Assembly: GCA_051002015.1 (NCBI GenBank)
Contig: JBPCMS010000078.1
Location: 1,564 to 65,563, forward strand
Source of the DNA: Acidimicrobiia bacterium
GTDB taxonomy: Bacteria > Actinomycetota > Acidimicrobiia > Spongiisociales > UBA5794
Length of the DNA stretch: 64,000 nucleotides
Direction: 5' to 3'
Shown one piece after another: positions 4,256 through 22,273 of the stretch (positions are counted from its first letter, which is position 1; every line of letters starts with the position of its first letter). The notes beneath the pieces are model-generated. The model worked only from the letters and a program-made list of their open reading frames with translations, searched no databases and was not told the DNA's origin. Both the position numbers and the translations under genes were made by a program.

Positions 4256-5685
4256 TGGGACAGAAGATCCACCCGTACGGCCTCCGTCTCGGCATCGTGA
4301 CCGACTGGAAGTCGCGCTGGTATTCCGAGAAGGACTACGCCGCCAACGTCAACCAGGATCACCAGATCCGGGTGTACCTGCGCACCCAGCTCAAGCGTGG
4401 TGCCCTCTCCCGCATCGACATCGAGCGCATCGGCAACGCCAAGGTCCAGGTCGACGTGCACACCGCCCGGCCCGGCGTCGTGATCGGTCGCGGCGGCTCC
4501 GAGGCCGAGCGGCTCCGCACTGGGCTCGAGAAGCTGACCAAGCGGATCGTCAAGTTCAACGTGATCGAGGTCCAGAACGCCGAGCTCGACGCCACCCTGC
4601 TCGCCCGCAGCGTCGCCGACCAGCTGGAGGGCCGGGTCGCCTTCCGTCGCGCCATGAAGCGGGCGGTGGCCACCGCCCTCAAGGCCGGTGCCGAGGGCGT
4701 GCGGGTCCAGGCCGCCGGCAGGCTGGGCGGCGCCGACATGGGCCGGCGCGAGTGGTATCTCGAGGGCCGGGTCCCGCTGCACACGCTGCGGGCCGACATC
4801 GATTTCGGCCAGGCGACCGCAGCCACCAGCGTCGGCGCCATCGGCGTCCAGGTGTGGGTGTACAAGGGCGACGTGGTCCGCAGTGCTGCCGACAGCCGCG
4901 AGAAGATCGCCGCCGAGGCACGGCTGGCCGCCGGCGGTCCCTCCGAGCGTCGCCGCTCGGCCAAGTCTCGCGCCGAGGCCGCCGCCGGTGAGGGTGGGGG
5001 CCGTCGTCTCATCGAGGCCGGTGGGGGCAAGCGCGTGGTCGAGGCCGGCGGGGGCAAGCGCCCCGGTCGCCGGCTGATCGAGGCCGGTGGCGGGCGCAAG
5101 CTGACCACCAGTGACGCAGCCGCAGAGTTCGATCTGGCCCGCTCCGAGACCGACGAGGCTGCGGTCCCCGAAGTCCCCGCAGTTCCCGAGGACGCCCCCG
5201 AGGTTGTCGACGCCGCCGCCGCCTCGGAGCTCACCGATGTGGGCGGTCAGGGATCGGTCGATGCGTCCGCCGAGCCGCTCGACGAGATGGATGCCATCGC
5301 CGAGAGCCTCGAGGCCGAGACCGCCGCCGACGAGGTCCTCACCGGGACGGCCGGGGCGACCGAGATTGCCGATGTTGCCGATGTGGCCGAGACCGGACCG
5401 GCCGATGTGGCCGATGTGCCCGAGACCGGACCCGCCGAGGTTGCCGATGTGACCGATGTGGCCGAGACCGGACCGGCCGATGTGGCCGATGTGCCCGAGA
5501 CCGGACCCGCCGAGGTTGCCGATGTCGCCGATGTGGCCGATGTGTCCGAGACCGGACCGGCCGATGTGGCCGAGACCGCGGTGGGCCCGGTCGACACCGA
5601 GGGCTCCGCCGACACCGAGGAATCTCCCGACGTCGCAGACGGCGAGGACTCCGAGGACTCCGAGGACCGGGGGGAGGTGACCTGA
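4255..5685 (+). CDS. rpsC: 30S ribosomal protein S3 with an unusually long (about 250 aa) low-complexity C-terminal extension
   Basis: [23 protein letters not shown]...[31 protein letters not shown] is the S3 core. ATGA overlap with rplV. The frame stays open for 476 codons and stops 1 nt before the rplP start. Confidence 0.93.
5371..5577 (+). repeat. in-frame 75-nt tandem repeat (2 full copies plus partial copies) inside the rpsC tail
   Basis: 5380-5454 and 5455-5529 are near-identical and encode [24 protein letters not shown](T/A). Degenerate copies flank them. Confidence 0.9.
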
Positions 5686-12597: not shown

Positions 12598-13377
12598 ATG
12601 AGCGGCAAGGTGATGACGATGAAGACCTGGGCCGACTTCGAGAGGATGCAGGTGGCCGGGCGATGTGTCGCTGCGGTGCACGCCGCCGTCCGGGAGGCCG
12701 CCGCCCCCGGTGTCTCCACCAGCGAGCTCGACGCCATCGCCGAGGCGGTGGTCAGGGCGCACGGCTGCCGACCATCGTTCCTCGGCTACCACGGCTATCC
12801 GGCCACGATCTGCGCCTCGCCCAACGCCACCATCGTCCACGGCATCCCCGACGGCTACCGCCTGGTGGAGGGCGATGTCCTGTCCGTCGACGCCGGCGCC
12901 ATCTTCGAGGGTTGGCACGGCGACGCCGCCTTCACCATGGCCATCGGTGAGGTGCCTCGCGCCGTCGCCCGACTGATCGAGGTGACCGAGGAGGCGTTGT
13001 GGAACGGGATCGCCCAGGCGCAGGCGGGCAGGAGGCTGGGCGACATCGGTCATGCCGTCGAGCAGACCGCCTCGCCGCACGGCTACGGCGTGGTGCGGGA
13101 GTACGTCGGACACGGGATCGGTCGTTCGATGCACGAGGCGCCCGACGTCCACAACTTCGGTGACACCGGCAAGGGGCTCAAGCTGAAGACGGGGATGGCG
13201 CTGGCCATCGAGCCGATGTTCAACCTGGGCGGCGCGGAGACGTTGACCCTCGAGGACGGCTGGACCGTGGTCACCGCAGACGGCTCGATCTCCGCCCACT
13301 TCGAGCACACCGTGCTGCTCACCGAGAAGGGCTCGATGGTGTCGACCCTGCCCGAACCGGTCCTGGTCGGCGCCTGA
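12598..13377 (+). CDS. map: type I methionine aminopeptidase
   Basis: HGIPDGYRLVEGDVLSVDAGA...GHGIGRSMHEAP...AIEPMF...HFEHTVLLT (metal-ligand motifs). In-frame ATGs at codons 6 and 8 are alternative starts. Confidence 0.95.
   Translation: MSGKVMTMKTWADFERMQVAGRCVAAVHAAVREAAAPGVSTSELDAIAEAVVRAHGCRPSFLGYHGYPATICASPNATIVHGIPDGYRLVEGDVLSVDAGAIFEGWHGDAAFTMAIGEVPRAVARLIEVTEEALWNGIAQAQAGRRLGDIGHAVEQTASPHGYGVVREYVGHGIGRSMHEAPDVHNFGDTGKGLKLKTGMALAIEPMFNLGGAETLTLEDGWTVVTADGSISAHFEHTVLLTEKGSMVSTLPEPVLVGA
13129..13369 (+). repeat. direct repeat copy 1 (inside intact map); the partner is 14914-15154
   Basis: 241 nt with 4 mismatches to the second copy, at an offset of 1785 nt. Confidence 0.95.
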
Positions 13378-13528
13378 GGGGACCGCGGAACGGCGCTCAG
13401 CGTCCCACCAGCTCCCGTCGTCGAGAACCACCTGCTCCAGCGGGTGGGTGGCCGGACCCTGGAGGACCGCCCCGTCGAGTCCGTAGCCCGAGCCGTGACA
13501 TGACAACCCGCCTCGGCACCGGCCGCCG

Positions 13529-13912
13529 TCATGGCAGGGAGAACCCGCCCACACGCACCACGAGGTCGCCGTCCGCCGGGTCGTCCTCGAAGACGAACAC
13601 CAGGTCATCCGAGGCGCCCCCGGCGAGGAAGTCGATCGTCTGGTCTGCGGTCACCGTCTCGTCTCCGATGGTCAGCTCGGCGACGACCTGGACATCGGCG
13701 GCGGTGGTGTCACCGTCATTCACGACCAGGACCGGGACGTGGAAGCGTGGACCCCTGGCCTCGACCTCCCCATTGACGGAGGCGTTCGGTGCCGCCGGCT
13801 CCTGGTCGCCGATGATCTGCCCGGCGATGAGCCCGACCACGCCGAGCAGCACGAGGCAAGCCACGAAGAACGTGACCCATTCGGCTCCGGTACGGGAGCG
13901 GGAAGCAGTCAT
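13529..13912 (-). CDS. small N-terminally membrane-anchored protein of unknown function (from memory, resembles the TIGR02588-type partner of TIGR02587 membrane proteins)
   Basis: MTASRSRTGAEWVTFFVACLVLLGVVGLIAGQI (one TM helix) followed by an acidic soluble domain. ATGA overlap with the upstream gene. The longer ORF-track N-terminus is rejected. Confidence 0.6.
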   Translation of the reverse strand: MTASRSRTGAEWVTFFVACLVLLGVVGLIAGQIIGDQEPAAPNASVNGEVEARGPRFHVPVLVVNDGDTTAADVQVVAELTIGDETVTADQTIDFLAGGASDDLVFVFEDDPADGDLVVRVGGFSLP

Positions 13913-14796
13913 ATCGCCAACCGTCCCGCCGCTCCCCCGATGGCCGCCGGCAACCCGAGCACCACCACCTGGCTCAGGGTCGCCGGCCATGGTCCCTCCA
14001 CGTTCTGGAAGATGACCAGCATCGACCACGACGCACCGAGCGCCACCAGGTAGGCGGCCACGGTTTCGCTCACCGGCCGTTGGAAGATGCCTCGCTGGGC
14101 GTGGCGTTGCTCTTCCTTGGCGAACCCGGCGACGAACACGATGCCATAACAGGCCAGCAGCGACAGCCCCATCAACCCCAGCAACCACGGTGGGTCGAGT
14201 GCGGACGCCAGCATCGGTACCTCGTCTGTGGGGGCGATGCTGAGCGACAGGAAGACGGCCCCGATGAGGGTGGCGCCGAGATCGGCGAGGGTGCCGTTCA
14301 TGCGCTCCGACCCCTTGGTGCCGGTATCACCGCCGCCGGCATCGTCTTCGTCGGATTCATCGCGACCACGTTGCAGGAAGTGGGCGGCTACCCCGATTCC
14401 GATGCAGAACGGGACGGACCCGTAGACGACCTGGCCAAGCCCTTCCTGCAGCGGCGTTCGACCGTTCAGCTCGCCCAGGAGGATGAGGATGACGGTGACG
14501 CTGAGGAGACCGATCGCCATCGCCTCGACGGTGTCCATCAGGGCGTCTCCCCACCGGATGTCACGGGTGGAGCGGAACCCGGACGTGCGGTTGAGGAGGA
14601 GCACGGGCACCGTGGTGAGACCGAGGACGACCAGCGTTTGACCCGGTCGGGTGCTGCTGCCCGTCGACCACACCTCCGTCGTGTAGAGCAAGGGGATGCC
14701 AAAGAGAAGGCCCCCGGACACGGCCCGGACGACATCGACCAACTCCTCCCGCCAAGGACCCCGACCGCCATCACCCTTCGACGGGCGGCGGCTCAT
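13909..14796 (-). CDS. polytopic integral membrane protein of unknown function (TIGR02587-like, tentative)
   Basis: MSRRPSKGDGG...GGLLFGIPLLYTTEVW... with 5-6 hydrophobic spans and an acidic loop (RGRDESDEDDAGGGD). The ORF-track N-terminus (to 15276) is antisense to the map fragment and is rejected. Confidence 0.65.
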   Translation of the reverse strand: MSRRPSKGDGGRGPWREELVDVVRAVSGGLLFGIPLLYTTEVWSTGSSTRPGQTLVVLGLTTVPVLLLNRTSGFRSTRDIRWGDALMDTVEAMAIGLLSVTVILILLGELNGRTPLQEGLGQVVYGSVPFCIGIGVAAHFLQRGRDESDEDDAGGGDTGTKGSERMNGTLADLGATLIGAVFLSLSIAPTDEVPMLASALDPPWLLGLMGLSLLACYGIVFVAGFAKEEQRHAQRGIFQRPVSETVAAYLVALGASWSMLVIFQNVEGPWPATLSQVVVLGLPAAIGGAAGRLAI

Positions 14797-14913
14797 GGCG
14801 CGCCGCCACGTTTCGCCGAAGGCGATACGACCGGGAGGGGCTTTCGGAAGCGCGGCATCAGGGTCGCTTACCCGAGTCGGTGGCCGTTGAATCCTTGGAG
14901 ATGAGGCCGGGCC

Positions 14914-15168
14914 ATGCACGAGGCGCCCGACGTCCACAACTTCGGTGACACCGGCAAGGGGCTCAAGCTGAAGACGGGGATGGCGCTGGCCATCGAGCCG
15001 ATGTTCAACCTGGGCGGCGAGGAGACGTTGACCCTCGAGGACGGCTGGACCGTGGTCACCGCCGACGGCTCGATCTCCGCCCACTTCGAGCACACCGTGC
15101 TGCTCACCGAGAAGGGGTCGTTGGTGTCGACCCTGCCCGAACCGGTCCTGGTCGAGGCCCGTCGCTGA
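14914..15168 (+). pseudogene. orphan 3' fragment of map (84 codons), second copy of the direct repeat
   Basis: MHEAPDVHNFGDTGKGLKLKTGMALAIEPMFNLGG...HFEHTVLLTEKGS is about 98% identical in nucleotide sequence to 13129-13369. It lacks the N-terminal 175 residues of Map. Confidence 0.9.
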
Positions 15169-15245
15169 ACCCGTCGACAAGTGGGACGTCGGTATGGACA
15201 GACCACGAGCCGGCCGGGGGAAGCGGCCCGACGAGAGAGGGGCGA

Positions 15246-15740
15246 TCAGGAGGTTCGTCCGGCGGCCACCCGCCACTCGTGATCGGTGGAAGCGCCGGCC
15301 TTTGTTGCCTCGAGAACTGCGTCGATCTCTTCCTGGGTGAGCTCACTGACCAGGCAGAACTCGTTGCCGAACGGGTCTTGCATGACGGCCCAGTCGAGCA
15401 CCGGTGGTTGGTCGCCGTGGGAACCGGGTCGCGGGTAGAGAGTGGGTGGCTTCTTGACCGATCCGCCAAGAGCAACGATCTGTTCGATGGCGCGGTCGGT
15501 CCCCTCGTTCGGAGTGAGGTCGATGTGTACTCGGTTGGTCCACCGACCTTTGGGCGCATCGACCACGTGAAGGATGAACTCGTGTTTCCATGGATCCTTC
15601 TGGCCCAGATAGCCGAAGCGACCATGCCAACCACTACGGGTTCCTATTATCTCCAGGCCGGTCAGTTCCGACCAGAACTCATAGCCAACAGTGAGATCAC
15701 CGACATCGATGACCGTGCAGCGGTATGTCCCTATCCCCAT
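15246..15740 (-). CDS. VOC (glyoxalase/bleomycin-resistance/dioxygenase-like) family protein
   Basis: 164 aa with HVVDAP...RVHIDL...DPFGNEFCLV motifs typical of glyoxalase-like domains. It starts 9 nt after the cupin gene. Confidence 0.65.
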   Translation of the reverse strand: MGIGTYRCTVIDVGDLTVGYEFWSELTGLEIIGTRSGWHGRFGYLGQKDPWKHEFILHVVDAPKGRWTNRVHIDLTPNEGTDRAIEQIVALGGSVKKPPTLYPRPGSHGDQPPVLDWAVMQDPFGNEFCLVSELTQEEIDAVLEATKAGASTDHEWRVAAGRTS

Positions 15741-15749
15741 CTACGGAAC

Positions 15750-16115
15750 CTAGCCGCCCATTTGCTGCCTTGCGTGCTCGCCGAACTGACGCATCGGTCC
15801 CACCGGGCCGACCTCGAGGAACACGACGACCTCATCGGTCCAGGCGGTGTGGCCGGCCGGCCAATAGTAGAGCTGGCCCGCTTGCGTGGTCTCTTCGGTG
15901 CCGTCCGCATGACGAAGGTGGATCGATCCTTCGAGGACTAGCCCCCAGTGGGGGCTGGGGCACCGGTCGCCGGGCAATCCTTTGAGCACGGGTGACAGGT
16001 CGGTGCCCGCAGGCACCCGTGCATATCGGACGGCCATCTCGCCCCATTCTGCATAGCGAGTGCTGAGCTCACCCTGCTCCAGCTCGATGGGGACCTCGTC
16101 GATCGTCTGTCTCAT
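15750..16115 (-). CDS. cupin domain protein
   Basis: 121 aa with HWGLVLEGSIHLRHADG...YYWPAGH beta-barrel motifs. AGGAGC RBS upstream of the ATG. Confidence 0.65.
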   Translation of the reverse strand: MRQTIDEVPIELEQGELSTRYAEWGEMAVRYARVPAGTDLSPVLKGLPGDRCPSPHWGLVLEGSIHLRHADGTEETTQAGQLYYWPAGHTAWTDEVVVFLEVGPVGPMRQFGEHARQQMGG

Positions 16116-16214
16116 TGTTGCTCCTAGTCCTCAGGCGGCTTTCCACGGGCTCGACGCAGCGGTCCGGTTTCCGGCGGCGACCCTTCCGAGTCCACCACCC
16201 CTCCTCTGCTATCG

Positions 16215-16253
16215 TTGCGAGTAGAATCTACTCGCCTTGCGAGTAGATGTCAA
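16215..16253 (-). promoter_or_regulatory. sigma-70-type promoter (TTGACA-N17-TAGATT on the minus strand) overlapped by repeated CTACTCGCAA/GCGAGTAG operator half-sites; putative PadR operator
   Basis: Minus strand reads TTGACAtCTACTCGCAAgGCGAGTAGATTCTACTCGCAA. It contains an 8-bp inverted repeat (16217-16235) and an 11-nt direct repeat (16215-16225 and 16237-16247). It lies about 100 nt upstream of the cupin ATG. Confidence 0.6.
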
Positions 16254-16421
16254 CAGGAAGATTATGCTACGGCACCCGCGCTACCGGCGTGCGGTAGTAC
16301 CCGTTCGGTTCGACTTCGGTCCAGACGAGGATCTCGAGGGCGCGCAGCGGTGTGACCGTGTATCCGCGGACCGCCAGGTCGCCACAGACGGCTTCGAGGA
16401 CGGGCGGCGCTTGGCGGCAGC

Positions 16422-17132
16422 TCAACCGGAGGTCTTGCCTCTGCCGCGATCCCGTATGCGCTCGAGCCGTTCCCTGGTCGCCGGCGTGATCGACGAATCG
16501 GTCGTCGACGGCCACTCGCTGACTTCGGCGGCGGCCGTGGTCAGGGATGCCTCGATGTCGACCAGGAGGGTGGTGGTGACATCGATGACGCGGGTGACGA
16601 CGTGGAGCCGTTCCGGGAACTGGGGACGATCGTGAACCACGAGGCGCTCATGGTCCGAGCCACCAACGCCCTCTTCGAGCATCCACAGCGGACCGCCCTC
16701 TTCGAGGTACTCGTCGACAAACCCGAGCAGGGTATCGAGCATCGACCGCGCCATCCGGGCCGTCGCCTCCATGGATCCGACCATGTCCTCGACGCTGCCC
16801 TGATCGCCGTAGAACATCCGGACGAGCCCCTCGATCTCGAGGCGAGGCTCTTCAGGTTCGGTGCTCAGCCACTCCTCCATGGCCCTCCTCCCCTCGGGAG
16901 TGATCGTGTACCGGTTTCTGTGCCGCTTGCCTACCGGCTCACGTTCCACGCTCGCCCAACCCAGATCGATCAGACGTTTCTGTTCCCGGTACAGGTGACC
17001 CTCCGAGGATGGCCACACGAACCGCAAACTGCGACGAAGCTGGTTGGTGAGCTCGTAACCGGTCCATGATCTGGCAGCAAGAAGCCCTAACAGCGCATAA
17101 GTAGTGGGAGAAGGCTGTTTCACCAGACCCAT
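16422..17132 (-). CDS. PadR family transcriptional regulator
   Basis: MGLVKQPSPTTYALLGLLAARSWTGYELTNQLRRSLRFVWPSSEGHLYREQKRLIDLGWA...GKRHRNRYTITPEGR is a winged-helix PadR signature. The ORF-track extension to 17807 overlaps the anti-sigma gene and is rejected. Confidence 0.85.
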   Translation of the reverse strand: MGLVKQPSPTTYALLGLLAARSWTGYELTNQLRRSLRFVWPSSEGHLYREQKRLIDLGWASVEREPVGKRHRNRYTITPEGRRAMEEWLSTEPEEPRLEIEGLVRMFYGDQGSVEDMVGSMEATARMARSMLDTLLGFVDEYLEEGGPLWMLEEGVGGSDHERLVVHDRPQFPERLHVVTRVIDVTTTLLVDIEASLTTAAAEVSEWPSTTDSSITPATRERLERIRDRGRGKTSG

Positions 17133-17134
17133 AT

Positions 17135-17151
17135 TACTCGCAATGCGAGCA
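17135..17151. promoter_or_regulatory. near-palindrome TACTCGCA-A-TGCGAGCA directly upstream of the PadR start; shares the half-site with 16215-16253
   Basis: Read directly. Only 2 nt separate it from the ATG (17132), which suggests autoregulation and a short or absent leader. Confidence 0.5.
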
Positions 17152-17203
17152 TTTGTGACCTGGAGGCGCCTCGGGTTCGCCGTTCCGGTGCGCCGCGGTC
17201 GGC

Positions 17204-17938
17204 TCAGCGGTCGACGGGGACCAGGCGCTCGGCGACGGCAAGCGCCTCGGCCAGCGTGGTGTCCGCCTCGATCCTGACCAGCACCCCGTGTCTGGTCGTC
17301 ACCAGGGTGCTTCCCGCCAGCCGGGCCCGGTCTCGTAAGGGGTTTCCCTCGGTGTCGAGCACGACCAGGGTGTGGGGGGCGCCCTCGATCCACAGCCCCG
17401 GAGCACCGCCGACCGTCACCTGCTGGATCTCCGTCCCGGAGCCGATCTCCTTGCCGATCAGGCCCTCGGTGGCGGTCCCGTCGAGCTGGGTGATCAGCAG
17501 CCGCCACCCATCGGTGGGCGACCCGTAGGCAAGGGTGACCATCCCACCGGGGACGGTGAAGTCGACGAACACCGCGTCCGGCTCGACCTGGTTGAGCCCG
17601 ACCAGGTTGAACGAGGCCGCCTCGGCGGCGTCGTCGAGCGTGGTGAGCTGGCCGAGGCTGCGTACGGTCGATGCCGGGGTGAGATCGGCGACCTGGGTTA
17701 TCTCCAGTGGGCCGATCCCGATGAGGTCGGCAACGGCCCTTCTGGTGGTGGGGATGACCGCGGTGAGGATGACGGCGATGGCGGCCGCCGCCGCCACCAT
17801 CCGCCACGGGGAGCGGCGGGGCACCGGCGGCGCCGCGATCCGATCGGTCACCGCCTCGACCAGCGGCGGGGTGGTCGGGAACACGATCTCGGACCGCAGC
17901 GAGTCGAGCATCGACCCGAGGGCATCGTGGGCGGTCAT
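17204..17938 (-). CDS. membrane-anchored anti-sigma-factor-like protein
   Basis: The N-terminal cytoplasmic segment is followed by one TM (WRMVAAAAAIAVILTAVIP) and an extracytoplasmic domain. ATGA overlap with the ECF sigma stop. Confidence 0.6.
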   Translation of the reverse strand: MTAHDALGSMLDSLRSEIVFPTTPPLVEAVTDRIAAPPVPRRSPWRMVAAAAAIAVILTAVIPTTRRAVADLIGIGPLEITQVADLTPASTVRSLGQLTTLDDAAEAASFNLVGLNQVEPDAVFVDFTVPGGMVTLAYGSPTDGWRLLITQLDGTATEGLIGKEIGSGTEIQQVTVGGAPGLWIEGAPHTLVVLDTEGNPLRDRARLAGSTLVTTRHGVLVRIEADTTLAEALAVAERLVPVDR

Positions 17939-18516
17939 GGCATCCTTCCCCCCAGATCGGTGCGGAGGTGCTCCATCGCCCTCCACAGCCGCGACTTCAC
18001 CGTTCCCTTGGGGATCCCGGCGGCCGCCGCCGTCTCCGCCTCGCTGAGCTGGAGGTAGTAGCGGAGCCCGACCACGAGCCGCTCACCATCGGGGAGGCGG
18101 TTGACGGCATCGAGCAGGGCTCGTCTGGTTTCCGCCGCCTCGGCCTCCTGCTCCGGGGTCAGGTCGGGGACGTCGGGGGCCAGTCGGATCGACCGCGCCT
18201 CGTATGCCAGCCTGCGACCAGACGACCGGCGTCGATTGCGGGCCTCGTTGGCGACGATGGTGAGCAGCCACGGCCGGAACGGGCGGCGCGGGTCGAACCG
18301 GTGGAGCGACACGTATGCCTTCACAAAGCCCTCCTGGGCGGCGTCCTCGGCGTCCGTTGCCGACCCGGTGACCAGGTAGGCCACCCGGAAGGCGAGCTGC
18401 TGGTGGATGGCCACCAGCCGGGCGTAGGCCGCCTGGTCGCCGTCCCGCGCCCTGGTCGCCAGCTCGACCTGGTCGGGTGGCGGGGCGTCATCGGCCGGGT
18501 CGAGCTCAGGGGGCAC
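17935..18516 (-). CDS. ECF-type RNA polymerase sigma-70 family factor
   Basis: AYARLVAIHQQLAFRVAYLVTGSATDAEDAAQEGFVKAY (region 2) and LSEAETAAAAGIPKGTVKSRLWRAMEHLR (region 4 HTH). GTG start. Confidence 0.88.
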   Translation of the reverse strand: MPPELDPADDAPPPDQVELATRARDGDQAAYARLVAIHQQLAFRVAYLVTGSATDAEDAAQEGFVKAYVSLHRFDPRRPFRPWLLTIVANEARNRRRSSGRRLAYEARSIRLAPDVPDLTPEQEAEAAETRRALLDAVNRLPDGERLVVGLRYYLQLSEAETAAAAGIPKGTVKSRLWRAMEHLRTDLGGRMP

Positions 18517-18653
18517 CGGAACGCCGTCGGCCGGTTGCCGCCGCCGATGCGACCCAGACTACGAGCGCCCCACCCTTCACGACGGATCCTCCTTGTGATC
18601 GTCCGTCGCCGTTGGTACTCCGCCGCGGTCGATCCGGTTCGCGGCGGCGGCGG

Positions 18654-19376
18654 TCAGGACAACTCGTCGAGGTATCTGGGGAGCATCGCCCGCCACGTCG
18701 GCCAGTCGTGGGGCCAGGTCTCGTCCCACTGGTCGACCCGGTTGGGGATGTCCTTGGCGCCGAGGGCGTTGGCCATCTGCCAGGTTCGCTCCGGAAACTC
18801 CCAGGCTCCGCTCCCCGTGGCGAACAGGACAAACCGGGTGCGGAGCAGGTCGAGCTGCCATCCATTGAGGTCTGGGAGGAAATGCAGCGGCGACGAGTAG
18901 TAGAAGTCGTCGCTCCAATGCCCGTGGAGCCGGTCGGACAGGTCGTAGGTGCCGCTCATGCACAGCGCCGCCCGGAACAGATCGGGGTGTCTGGTCAGCA
19001 GCTCGACGGCCCAGAAGGCGCCAACGGACGCTCCGGCCGAGATCACGGTGATGCCTTCGTCGTTGCAGTCGGAGCGGATGGCAGGGACCACCTCCTCGGC
19101 GATGAAGCGGTCGAACTGGTTCTGCAGCCACATCGAGTGGCGGGGGTCGTCGCCCATCATCCACGACCGGCCCGAGATCGAGTCGACCGAGTACACCTTG
19201 ATCCGCCTGGCGGCGAGCAGGTCGGCCACCGAGCTGATGGCGTGGAACCGCTCCGCTTCCTCGGCGTCCCCCCCAGCGGTGGGAAAGAGCAGCACCGGGG
19301 TGCCGACGGTGCCCCACCGGGCCAGGGTGGCGTTCTGCTGGACCCGATCCGAATACCAGTACTCCACCGCCTTCAT
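18654..19376 (-). CDS. alpha/beta-hydrolase 'putative esterase' family protein
   Basis: 240 aa with a GASVGA nucleophile-elbow (GxSxG) motif and PVLLFPTAGGDAEE. ATGA overlap with the ATP-grasp gene stop. Confidence 0.7.
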   Translation of the reverse strand: MKAVEYWYSDRVQQNATLARWGTVGTPVLLFPTAGGDAEEAERFHAISSVADLLAARRIKVYSVDSISGRSWMMGDDPRHSMWLQNQFDRFIAEEVVPAIRSDCNDEGITVISAGASVGAFWAVELLTRHPDLFRAALCMSGTYDLSDRLHGHWSDDFYYSSPLHFLPDLNGWQLDLLRTRFVLFATGSGAWEFPERTWQMANALGAKDIPNRVDQWDETWPHDWPTWRAMLPRYLDELS

Positions 19377-20668
19377 GCCGTCCCCCCTTCGCCTTCCGCC
19401 GTCGACGACGCACCGGCGAGACGATCGGTCTCGGTGTGGCGCCAGAACTGGACGAGCCCGTAGAAGTGGTCGGTGAACTGGTCGACCTCGTGGGCGGGGA
19501 ACAGCGTCGCCACCTTGCGCCTGATGATCTCCCTGACCCGCTCGGTCCCGAAGTAGTCGAGGGCGACTTGGTCGAGATCGTCCAGGTTCTCGGCGCAGAA
19601 GCTCTCGAAGCGGTCGGCGTCGAGGCGTTCCCTGGAGAGGCGGCCCATCGCCGCCAGCCGCTCCTCCGGATCCTCGATGGCTTCGGCGATGTCGAAGTAG
19701 TCCCTCCAACCCAGGTCGTGGCGCATCTTGCGCTTGGTGGCGGCGCAGAACAGCGACCAGCGCAGCAGCGCCTTCACCAGCCAGGGCAGGTGGTAGTGCA
19801 GCGAGGTCACCTGCGAGTCGGGGTTGGCGTTGGCGAAGTCGATCGGATAGAACACCCCGTCCTTTCGCAGCGCCTCGCACGAGTTGAAGTCCCACCCGAA
19901 GAAGGTGTTGATGGTCAGGGTCAGGTTGGTCAGGTGGTCCCACTCGGCGCCGTCGACGAAGTTGAAGCCCACCTTGTAGCGGTCGTGGAGCGGGGCGTCA
20001 GGGTCGTAGCGGATGATGTTGATCTGGGGTCCGACGCCGAGGCAGCGCACGAACAGGTCGAAGGGGTGGACCGCCTTCTGGATGTGCATGATGCGCGAAC
20101 CGGACGACTCGTAGGCGGCGACCAGGGCGTCCCCGTCGTCGATCTTGCTCACCCCGACCCAGGCGCCGCCGTCGTACGGCTTCATGAACAGCGGGTAGCC
20201 CATCCGGTCCCCGAGCGCCTTCAGGTCGAACATCTGGGCGTAGCGGTGGAGGGTGACGTCGAGATCGGCCTCGAGCGGGTCGGTGCGGCGGTACTCCTTC
20301 GGGGGCAGCAGCCAGGTCTCGGGGACGTTCGCCCCCAGCCGCATCAGGGCGGCGTACGAGGTGTGCTTCTGCATCGCCTGCAGCGTGAATGGATTGTTGA
20401 GGACGTACAGGTCGTCCTTCACCACCGCCTTCTTGATCCATTCCCGGCTGGTGTGGTACCAGGGGGTGAGCCGGTCGAGCACCACGTCGTAGCTGACGGG
20501 CTGATCGAGGTCGAAGGGCTCGATGGTGATGCGATCGGTCTCGAAGTCGACGGTGTCGCCGTCGACGGTCACGACCGGGGCGAGCTGGGCGAGGATGTCC
20601 TCGTAGAACTGGGGCCAGCAGAGATCGGCGCCCAGGGAGAGGCCGATGCGTCGGGTGTGGTGGCTCAT
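19373..20668 (-). CDS. ATP-grasp-fold protein of unknown specificity (tentative)
   Basis: 431 aa. The central GYPLFMKPYDGGAWVGVSKIDDGDAL...IMHIQKAV resembles the ATP-grasp nucleotide-binding core. The call rests on motif resemblance only. Confidence 0.55.
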   Translation of the reverse strand: MSHHTRRIGLSLGADLCWPQFYEDILAQLAPVVTVDGDTVDFETDRITIEPFDLDQPVSYDVVLDRLTPWYHTSREWIKKAVVKDDLYVLNNPFTLQAMQKHTSYAALMRLGANVPETWLLPPKEYRRTDPLEADLDVTLHRYAQMFDLKALGDRMGYPLFMKPYDGGAWVGVSKIDDGDALVAAYESSGSRIMHIQKAVHPFDLFVRCLGVGPQINIIRYDPDAPLHDRYKVGFNFVDGAEWDHLTNLTLTINTFFGWDFNSCEALRKDGVFYPIDFANANPDSQVTSLHYHLPWLVKALLRWSLFCAATKRKMRHDLGWRDYFDIAEAIEDPEERLAAMGRLSRERLDADRFESFCAENLDDLDQVALDYFGTERVREIIRRKVATLFPAHEVDQFTDHFYGLVQFWRHTETDRLAGASSTAEGEGGTA

Positions 20669-20726
20669 AGCCCCAAGTTACTGCGCGGCCGCACCGGCCG
20701 GCAGCCGGCAAACGACCGACCATTGC

Positions 20727-21926
20727 TCATGGCAGCCCGGCGGGCAGCAGGTCCAGGAGCGCACCGCCCAGCAGGTTGCGCCAGCTCTGCCAATGGTGGC
20801 CGTCCGCCACCTCCTCGTATTGCACCGCCATCCCGGTGGCCTCGAGCACGATGCGGAAGGCCCGATTGTCGGCCACCAGCCCCTCGAAGGTCCCAACCGC
20901 CATCCACACCTGGTCGGATGGCTGTCCCGGGTTCTCGGTGAATGCCTTCATGAAGGCGATGACCGGCTCGAACAGCGGCCCACGGCGCATCGGTCCCCCG
21001 GTGGCGGTGACGAACGAGCCCGACAGCAGGATGGTCGAGGCGAAGGTTCCCGGGTGGTACCACGCCGTGGCCAGGCTGGCCACCGCCCCCAGGCTGCTGC
21101 CGCCGATGACCCGGAGTGCCGGGTCGTCGGTGGTGTGGAACCCGGTGGCGAGCCGGGGGAGCACGTCTTCCACCACGAAGTCGGCGTGGGTCTCCGAGGC
21201 GGTGTACTCCTCGCTGCGGTGGACCGGGTCGAGCAGGGCGACCACGGCGGGCCGCACCGCCCCGGCCCCGAACAGGTTGTCGAGCACCGTGGCCAGCGAG
21301 GCGTACTCCACCATGTCGCTGCCGTCGTGGAGCACCACCAGCGGGTAGGGGCCGTCATCGGGGAAGCAGGGTGGCAGGTACACCGACACCAGACGGCGGT
21401 CGCCGAAGGCGCTCTTCTCGATCTCGAATGCCTCGAGCGTCCCGGGGGCGCCGCCGTTCGGGTTCACCCAGCTCGGCTCGACGTAGCCGGGGGCGTGAGC
21501 GACCGAGTTCGACCCGAACGGGTCCGATGCGGTGCGGCGGTTGAGGGGGTCGAGGATGCGGTCGGTGCGGTCGATGCCCACCACCTCGAGCTTGTACTCG
21601 ACCCGGCTCCCGGGGGGCAGCGCGACCGTGACGTGCCACAGATCGCTGTCTTCGACTCGCTCCATCGGGGGGAACTCGGGGAACCGCGCCATGAAATGGA
21701 CGACATCCACCGACTCGGCGTCCCCGACGTAGGCAAAGGTGGTGGCGCCGTCGACGGTGTAGGGGGCTCCGGCCCTGGCGATGCGGCGCCGCAGGTAGGC
21801 GGGCGCCATGTTGCGGGCGGCGATGGCGAGCATGTCGGGAAGGGGAAGCGGGGTGAGGGCTGCCATTGCCGGCGGGAGGCTAGCGGCGCCGTTTCCCCTC
21901 GCCATCGATCCAATGCGGGCTACCAT
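20727..21926 (-). CDS. enterochelin-esterase-like (Fes/esterase family) alpha/beta hydrolase with an N-terminal beta-sandwich domain
   Basis: [15 protein letters not shown]...[17 protein letters not shown] (N-domain), [15 protein letters not shown] (GxSxG). The start is uncertain: ATGs at 21926, 21905 and 21866 are all in frame. Confidence 0.7.
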
Positions 21927-22159
21927 CAGGGCGTCTCGACCCGTCGAGCCGACGTTCCGAGGGAGCGCTGGTTCAATTCGTGCGCGATTTGCCCGGATAT
22001 CCGAGCGGGGCCTATCATCATGGCCTGGTTCCCTTCGGGTGCCAGGCTTTTCCATGGGAGCGACCGCTGGCGCCCAACGTCGCCTCCGAGGCCGCGATGA
22101 GGGGTCGGACCGCTTCCGGACCGCAGTTCCGGAGGTCGAAACGCGACAGGTTCAGGGGT

Positions 22160-22273
22160 ATGAAGGTCTCAGCGTCCGCCAAGAAGATGTGTGAGAAGTG
22201 CCGGATCATCCGGAGACACGGTCGTGTCTGGGTGATCTGCTCCAACCCACGTCACAAGCAGCGTCAGGGGTAA
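22160..22273 (+). CDS. rpmJ: 50S ribosomal protein L36 (zinc form)
   Basis: [37 protein letters not shown]. Confidence 0.97.

Follow-up and report, generated by a model that had tools for sequence, protein, structure and literature searches.

An orphaned map 3′ end beside a membrane-protein gene pair in uncultured Acidimicrobiia, probably the fixed scar of an old recombination

Genomic islands and integrative and conjugative elements (ICEs) integrate into the 3′ ends of genes and restore them, e.g., tRNA and tmRNA genes, or rlmH in the case of SCCmec. In the arrays of Rhs, contact-dependent inhibition (CDI), and type VI secretion system (T6SS) genes, orphaned 3′ ends have been explained by displacement through homology-facilitated illegitimate recombination (HFIR) (PMC5361080). 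HFIR is known from transformation and conjugation in Acinetobacter, S. pneumoniae, P. stutzeri, and E. coli (PMC3240628). Here we describe a locus in which the 3′ end of map, the gene for type I methionyl aminopeptidase, occurs twice. The locus lies in a 64-kb stretch (the window, to which all positions refer) of the metagenome-assembled genome of an uncultured soil Acidimicrobiia. The left copy is part of an intact map and the right copy is an orphaned fragment. A pair of genes for membrane proteins (TIGR02588 and TIGR02587/DUF2391) lies between them, and a PadR-cupin-glyoxalase module follows the orphan on the right (Table 1). On balance, the right copy is probably an orphaned map 3′ end, the fixed scar of one ancient recombination that joined two versions of a variable gene slot. 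The scar is real but ordinary, the trace of a known kind of recombination and not an active mobile element.

The locus resembles the described systems only in part. As in the Rhs, CDI, and T6SS arrays, behind a full conserved gene and its cargo stands what looks like the 3′ remnant of an older, displaced allele, together with the cargo of that allele; the illegitimate joint is a single one, and a dedicated recombinase is absent. Unlike in those arrays, the place of the polymorphic toxin is taken by the essential map at the end of the spc operon, the cargo has no functional tie to the 3′ end, and only one orphan is seen, the relative L177 offering at best a faint sign of another, independent one (see below). 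HFIR as such combines a one-sided homology anchor with an illegitimate join and can place foreign DNA beside a conserved gene, as the locus would require; it was described experimentally in other phyla, whereas here it is read from the footprint alone. Campbell-type integration of a non-replicating circle also leaves a direct repeat of the homology that was carried in, with one intact and one 5′-truncated copy. In contrast to such integrations, the locus has no vector-like backbone, no circle was observed, and the structure is ancient and fixed. The islands and ICEs that target gene 3′ ends share with it a duplicate of the 3′ end at both borders and an intact target gene. They differ in that the locus has no integrase, its repeat is 241 nt long rather than tens of nt, and what the repeats enclose is a chromosomal pair of membrane-protein genes, apparently co-diverging with its neighbors.

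A repeat search and pairwise alignment matched 13129-13369 to 14914-15154 over 241 nt with four mismatches (237/241, 98.3%), the longest identical run being 106 nt. The two copies were the only ones found by a BLAST of the whole window against itself, and they form the sole long dispersed repeat in the 64 kb. Both have the same orientation, i.e., they are direct repeats, and two minus-strand genes alone lie between them. In the left copy, identity runs from the ATG of Map codon 178 to 13369, 5 nt short of the map TGA and 8 nt short of the last base of the gene. An extension to 13375 through a matching GCC was rejected for its two mismatches in one codon; the junction 13369/13370 fits better. 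The initial annotation of this DNA had described the repeat with its four mismatches, the minus-strand pair that it brackets, the 84-codon orphan, and an abrupt start at an internal Met, and all of these were confirmed. The intact map matches those of the nearest outgroups in length and type of tail.

The open reading frame (ORF) over the orphan covers just the last quarter of the M24 domain (PF00557 profile positions 162-208 of 208). Because nothing else of the profile is covered, the predicted product cannot be an active peptidase, and the right copy falls short of a whole M24 "pita-bread" domain with its full set of metal ligands. The public records MGI8823343.1 and CAN5363007.1 list the 84-aa product as an M24 family metallopeptidase; for annotation, the point is that this "M24 peptidase" is a pseudogene relic. 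The 85-nt spacer that supplies the end of the ORF had no homology to the regions downstream of map in the outgroups or to the other contexts of the module.

Table 1. Features of the locus between map and the ECF (extracytoplasmic function) sigma factor gene, in window coordinates.
Feature	Position	Strand	Evidence or remark
Intact map, type I methionyl aminopeptidase, 259 aa, tail ...PVLVGA*	12598-13377	+	TIGR00500 2.1e-82, PF00557 5e-50
Left repeat copy, Map codons 178-258 within intact map	13129-13369	+	Five states derived relative to outgroups and sister right copy
Spacer, 151 nt, separating the convergent map and TIGR02588 stop codons	13378-13528	.	Absent in L177
TIGR02588-like small membrane protein, 127 aa	13529-13912	-	TIGR02588 1.8e-24, 86 bits (cut-off 95)
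TIGR02587/DUF2391 integral membrane protein, 295 aa	13909-14796	-	PF09622 5e-95; TIGR02587 267 bits (cut-off 183.7)
117-nt region upstream of DUF2391	14797-14913	.	Right end (14913/14914) is the single novel recombination joint
Right repeat copy, orphaned Map codons 178-258, pseudogene relic	14914-15154	+	Decayed in sister lineage
84-codon ORF over the orphan, tail ...PVLVEARR*	14914-15168	+	NCBI annotation "M24 family metallopeptidase"
Unique spacer, 85 nt, between orphan and module	15155-15239	.	Supplies the ...(E)ARR* codons of the orphan ORF
PadR-cupin-glyoxalase module, discrete lower-GC accessory unit	15240-17151	-	Pfam matches
Glyoxalase/VOC gene	15246-15740	-	Pfam
Cupin-like gene	15750-16115	-	Pfam
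PadR gene	16422-17132	-	Pfam
Anti-sigma-like protein	17204-17938	-	Right border of variable slot, conserved
ECF sigma factor	17935-18516	-	Sigma70_r2/r4 matches; right border of slot

The arrangement and both junctions are common to the window, to GCA_965610425.1, and to eight ENA/JGI contigs (7.6-115 kb) of a sister lineage. The sister lineage is ~97% identical to the window lineage at the DNA level, and the flanks diverge by ~3%. All same-species contigs carry the structure (10/10), and the joint 14913/14914 is identical in the two lineages. The Logan unitig L003 contains this joint and terminates exactly 30 nt inside each copy, the branch expected in a de Bruijn graph at a true repeat. The unitig is compatible with both a circular and an integrated form. 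An assembly artifact, i.e., a mis-join of two strains or of chromosome and episome, could be suspected in a metagenome-assembled genome, and the 106-nt identical run cannot be bridged by short k-mers. Against this, the same structure occurs in at least 10 independent assemblies that cover two sublineages, several projects, and several assemblers. The two copies in the sister lineage, which are 12-13 sites and an 18-nt deletion apart, cannot be collapsed or mis-joined, and the truncated-map junction is present in a unitig built from raw reads. The artifact explanation, which the initial annotation had named as a ground for discarding the duplication if read-level evidence showed it, is effectively refuted, and we give it next to no credence.

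The sister lineage also dates the scar. There, the right copy differs from its own left copy by an in-frame deletion of 18 nt and by 12-13 substitutions (~5.6% divergence). The changes reach conserved motifs, including a W to C replacement in DGWTVVT, and the ratio of nonsynonymous to synonymous substitutions is roughly neutral. Because of the deletion, the motif changes, the near-neutral ratio, and the presence of the structure in both lineages, the sister right copy is a decaying pseudogene, and the duplication predates the split of the two lineages. The scar is old and fixed in two sublineages, with no sign of current mobility. It is not recent, because the divergence of the sister copies, together with the 18-nt deletion, exceeds the ~3% by which the flanks differ between lineages. 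That all relatives might share the arrangement, with copies as diverged as the flanking DNA, had been put forward in advance as evidence against the integration idea. As regards a recent or active element, this situation is nearly reached (~5.6% against ~3% in the flanks, with the copies fixed in both sublineages).

The substitutions in the two copies were polarized with the nearest outgroups, L183 and L182. At five sites the left copies of both lineages are derived (three of the changes are nonsynonymous), and the sister right copy and the nearest outgroups are ancestral. The right copy of the window is a mosaic, with the ancestral state at 13235 and 13336 and the left-copy state at 13288, 13356, and 13362. 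Changes specific to the right copy number one in the window lineage versus ~10 plus the 18-nt deletion in the sister lineage (binomial ~0.006). Overall, the right copy gained no changes before the lineages split and ~7-10 afterwards. Both copies are equidistant from every outgroup (82.1% each to L183).

A single sequence in a single genome is hard to reconcile with this history, because before the split the functional left copy would have fixed five changes and the unconstrained right copy none, and after the split the pattern is reversed. The left and right copies thus seem to stem from two alleles, and these would be conspecific, since both are equally far from the outgroups. A two-allele origin points to recombination between genomes rather than to internal duplication. 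Under HFIR the orphan and the resident copy are expected to come from different alleles or donors, and the substitution pattern agrees.

The near identity of the copies in the window has a separate cause, it appears. An 868-nt contig of another strain (L185; GCA_030155825.1 JALYEL010172302.1) carries the right context and the EARR tail at 398-652, and all four internal differences are in the left-copy state. The mosaic in the window, the imbalance of changes specific to the right copy, and this contig suggest gene conversion from the left to the right copy in the window lineage. If so, the 98.3% identity in the window is no clock. At its glyoxalase end, L185 is unusually diverged (~14 differences in the last ~90 nt), which gives that end a recombinant or chimeric look.

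We propose the following course of events for displacement by HFIR. Two conspecific versions of the slot would have existed. Version A would have read map(...LVGA*)-TIGR02588-TIGR02587-sigma operon, and version B map(...LVEARR*)-glyoxalase-cupin-PadR-sigma operon, with the module horizontally acquired. In a one-sided homologous exchange between them, either the conserved secY-adk-map side or the sigma side would have served as the anchor. On the other side, the DNA upstream of DUF2391 (14913) would have been joined illegitimately to Map codon 178 (14914). The product of this "3′-end displacement" would be a full map, then the membrane pair, then what remained of the other map allele, namely its 3′ end and the cargo behind it. 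Later, the orphan would have decayed in the sister lineage and been partly homogenized in the window lineage by conversion from the functional copy. A recombinase encoded by an element would not be required, and the single novel joint 14913/14914 would be enough. The layout is that of HFIR, i.e., a full gene with cargo and then an orphan 3′ fragment with different cargo.

The polarity of the exchange can be argued both ways. The conservation of the upstream anchor and the analogy to Rhs arrays favor the membrane pair as the incoming DNA; the adjacency seen in L177 and the mobility and GC of the glyoxalase module favor the module. The initial annotation, which had proposed an integration scar, was right in spirit, as the locus is the scar of a recombination that made one novel joint. 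Its view that the membrane pair is the insert is not clearly upheld, since L177 has the pair in the same slot beside the sigma operon and a map 3′ end. Its view that EARR is the original Map tail is unsupported: the nearest outgroups end in LVG*, LVPG*, LVHA*, and LVDA*, like the LVGA* of the intact gene.

Other routes to the same arrangement were weighed against displacement by HFIR. In a Campbell-type crossover, a 1785-bp circle (Map codons 178-259, 151 nt, TIGR02588, TIGR02587, and 117 nt) from a conspecific fragment would have been integrated, dependent on RecA, into a map that already had the glyoxalase module downstream. The outcome is topologically equal to that of HFIR, with the same single joint (14913/13129 on the circle) and a direct repeat that comprises one complete and one 5′-truncated copy, as found. 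A foreign circle agrees with the two-allele pattern, circularization followed by a single crossover has been documented for incoming linear DNA (PMC3240628), and L003 fits a circle as well as the integrated form. Even so, a Campbell-type origin is unlikely, if still a serious candidate, as it takes a circularization and then an integration, although a single step would be enough. Functions for replication, mobilization, or recombination are missing from the 1.8-kb unit. No homolog of the DUF2391 pair was found in phage or viral collections, and the matches on plasmids are just 28-30% identical. In addition, the integrated form is unambiguous in the sister contigs, whose copies are too unlike to confuse, and the model forces the pair to be incoming, which fits poorly with the seemingly vertical descent of the pair alongside the sigma operon in L177. 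An intragenomic origin would derive both copies from the map of one genome, either by tandem duplication of 13129-14913 and precise loss of the second cassette or by repair synthesis or template switching at a break. It accounts for direct repeats in the same orientation without foreign DNA and for the equal distance of both copies from all outgroups. We find it improbable, as at least two events are required, the functional left copy must fix five substitutions (three nonsynonymous) while the unconstrained right copy fixes none, and the right copy has its own tail and its own downstream DNA.

The initial annotation had offered a 3′-end-targeting element as the counterpart of a Campbell integration; the repeat geometry of the latter stood, and the site-specific element lacked two of its defining features, an integrase and a second occurrence or isogenic empty site. 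Such an element would have targeted the map 3′ end through an attP with a replacement end, its integrase now being either gone or supplied in trans. The layout does resemble islands that regenerate their target gene, and the neighboring module adjoins, at other loci, a tyrosine integrase, an HTH_17 excisionase-like gene, and a ParE/Phd pair. However, those integrase-linked contexts hold no map sequence, and the module lies outside the repeats, in the wrong order for being the element. Pfam (plus NCBIfam) matches on the ORFs from 12598 to 18516 and the pipeline gene calls with Pfam out to rpsM included no recombinase, integrase, transposase, or relaxase, as had been remarked before. There is no tRNA in the whole window, and Rfam gave no family in 12-23 kb. 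The 241-nt identity far exceeds the usual att cores; the repeats behave as substrates of homologous recombination, as the gene-conversion mosaic indicates, and no shorter att core is definable. No other occurrence of the bracketed pair as a mobile unit was seen, the searches yielded no isogenic empty site, and the structure is stably fixed and decaying in two lineages. All told, we consider an integrative element very unlikely.

Several points weigh against displacement by HFIR as well. Searches within the species yielded neither of the parental haplotypes, a Map of 261 aa with the EARR tail was not found in the 90% cluster of a collection of 15 billion proteins, and no isogenic contig without the orphan was found. 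The parental sequences needed for reading microhomology at the joint were likewise not found. The intergenic DNA is too diverged from L177 to support the 117 nt as the ancestral spacer between DUF2391 and the anti-sigma gene. L177 is itself a 3-kb Logan contig in which homology to map is lost 60 nt before the end, and it is possibly chimeric. The state of L185 may be due to an assembler that merged the two copies into a consensus, and not to true gene conversion. Finally, displacement by HFIR would presuppose competence or another route of DNA uptake in this uncultured lineage.

The genes of the membrane pair are translationally coupled via an ATGA start/stop overlap. The TIGR02588 call, which falls below the cut-off, is backed by a full-length match, by this overlap, and by the pairing conserved in L177 and L181; by score, adjacency, and coupling the two genes belong to the TIGR02587/TIGR02588 pair. 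The closest DUF2391 homolog beyond the lineage is 69% identical (P0002/L177). Between the window and L177, the pair is 68% (DUF2391) and 63% (TIGR02588) identical and the anti-sigma protein 65%. The pair has diverged from L177 as far as the anti-sigma protein has, which is consistent with vertical descent in the slot. A literature search on DUF2391 turned up no papers. In the window and in L177, the pair adjoins the ECF sigma/anti-sigma pair. In more distant relatives (L181, 3059-5467, and the P0004 contig), it adjoins STAS and HATPase_c_2 genes, i.e., RsbV/RsbW-like partner-switching genes. The repeated association with regulators of sigma factors may hint at the role of the pair. Pop-out of the pair through the 241-nt direct repeats, mediated by RecA, should be possible. 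Its retention in every strain seen, although the repeats should permit its loss, suggests that the membrane pair is under selection.

Relatives of the locus were retrieved through homologs of DUF2391 and of the anti-sigma protein. They share a backbone of secY-adk-map, convergent with the anti-sigma and ECF sigma genes, followed by esterase genes and then rpmJ-rpsM. The slot between map and the anti-sigma gene varies. In L182 it is empty, with 6 nt between the two genes, and in L183 it holds a LysM gene. The order in L177 (~75% DNA identity) is sigma, anti-sigma, 72 nt, DUF2391, TIGR02588, and a convergent map 3′ segment; the TIGR02588 stop directly abuts Map codon 255. Neither the orphan nor the glyoxalase module lies between DUF2391 and the anti-sigma gene. 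The pair and a second map fragment were absent from all 160 other map loci listed in genome and metagenome scans with Map; for the metagenomes this holds among the matches listed, which did not include the known same-species JGI contigs. The comparison of syntenic relatives that the initial annotation had called for gave a divided answer: there was no isogenic or same-species empty site among these 160 loci, and only the more distant L182 and L183 have the slot empty or differently filled. Alignments of the window spacers (117, 52, 151, and 85 nt) with the 72-nt spacer of L177 did not beat shuffled sequences. A match of ATGAGGC at the spacer ends of the window and L177, seen by eye, was dropped, the alignments being no better than shuffles.

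In the window, ~8.8 kb of non-ribosomal DNA (13378-22160) lie between map and rpmJ (22160-22273)/rpsM. The interval contains the DUF2391 pair, the glyoxalase module, the ECF sigma/anti-sigma pair, and three esterase-like genes, and there is no infA in it. The part from the sigma genes to the esterases is an old feature of the clade, since it is conserved in L182 and L183. Elsewhere, a 1-kb metagenome contig (L105) carries the map 3′ end in inverted orientation at its extreme end (954-1037). This copy is most likely a palindromic assembly artifact.

The map-like segment of L177 (2825-3010) covers codons ~201-255, and homology is lost upstream of about codon 201. The ORF over it continues antisense into TIGR02588 and has the tail SGFGEGVDPHH*. 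The 60 nt of non-map sequence at the contig end had no match by BLAST or tblastx against all loci. A protein search with the chimeric ORF for a full-length version returned only short C-terminal fragments of Map, many from contig ends or from frameshifted long-read assemblies; it also surfaced P0161/L185. The segment may be a second, independent orphan with other breakpoints, or it may be a chimeric contig end. As it could be a second orphan, we also considered that in this clade the map 3′ end, where the spc and alpha ribosomal operons meet, is a recurrent landing pad. Cargo modules would pile up there through successive displacements, every one of which would leave behind an orphaned map end, possibly with the involvement of an activity acting in trans. 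We regard this as improbable. If true, it would amount to an array in the style of Rhs and T6SS that is built on an essential housekeeping gene.

The PadR-cupin-glyoxalase module occurs with unchanged boundaries in four other contexts, at 79-90% DNA identity. Its neighbors there are ParE/Phd, a tyrosine integrase with HTH_17, or transposase remnants. The copies are among L092-L096 and L178-L180, and the glyoxalase falls in the same protein cluster at 90% identity. The GC of the module is 0.59-0.67, compared with ~0.70 in the flanks. The module, to the right of the orphan, is the demonstrably mobile piece of the locus. A perfect 9+3+9 palindrome, TCTACTCGC CTT GCGAGTAGA, lies between the cupin and PadR genes (16227-16247), and a degenerate direct copy of it is found at 16205-16225. 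The only sigma-70-like promoter match of the region is on the minus strand at 16253-16225. The stretch 16205-16253 is a candidate PadR operator/promoter.

The junction of map and rpmJ in the ribosomal-protein supercluster serves as a cargo slot in this uncultured clade of Acidimicrobiia, where an ECF sigma operon, esterases, the DUF2391 pair, and the mobile PadR-glyoxalase module are found. The locus illustrates that the stacking of cargo can be dated and oriented from an orphaned gene end, and that an old scar can pass for a recent one after gene conversion. It leaves the current understanding of mobile elements unchanged and is of local interest for genome architecture and annotation.

The only other repeat in the window is in rpsC (4264-5685), the gene for ribosomal protein S3. 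The product has ~474 aa, about twice the usual length, and the sister version has 456 aa. The S3 of the window has a highly acidic C-terminal extension of tandem repeats.

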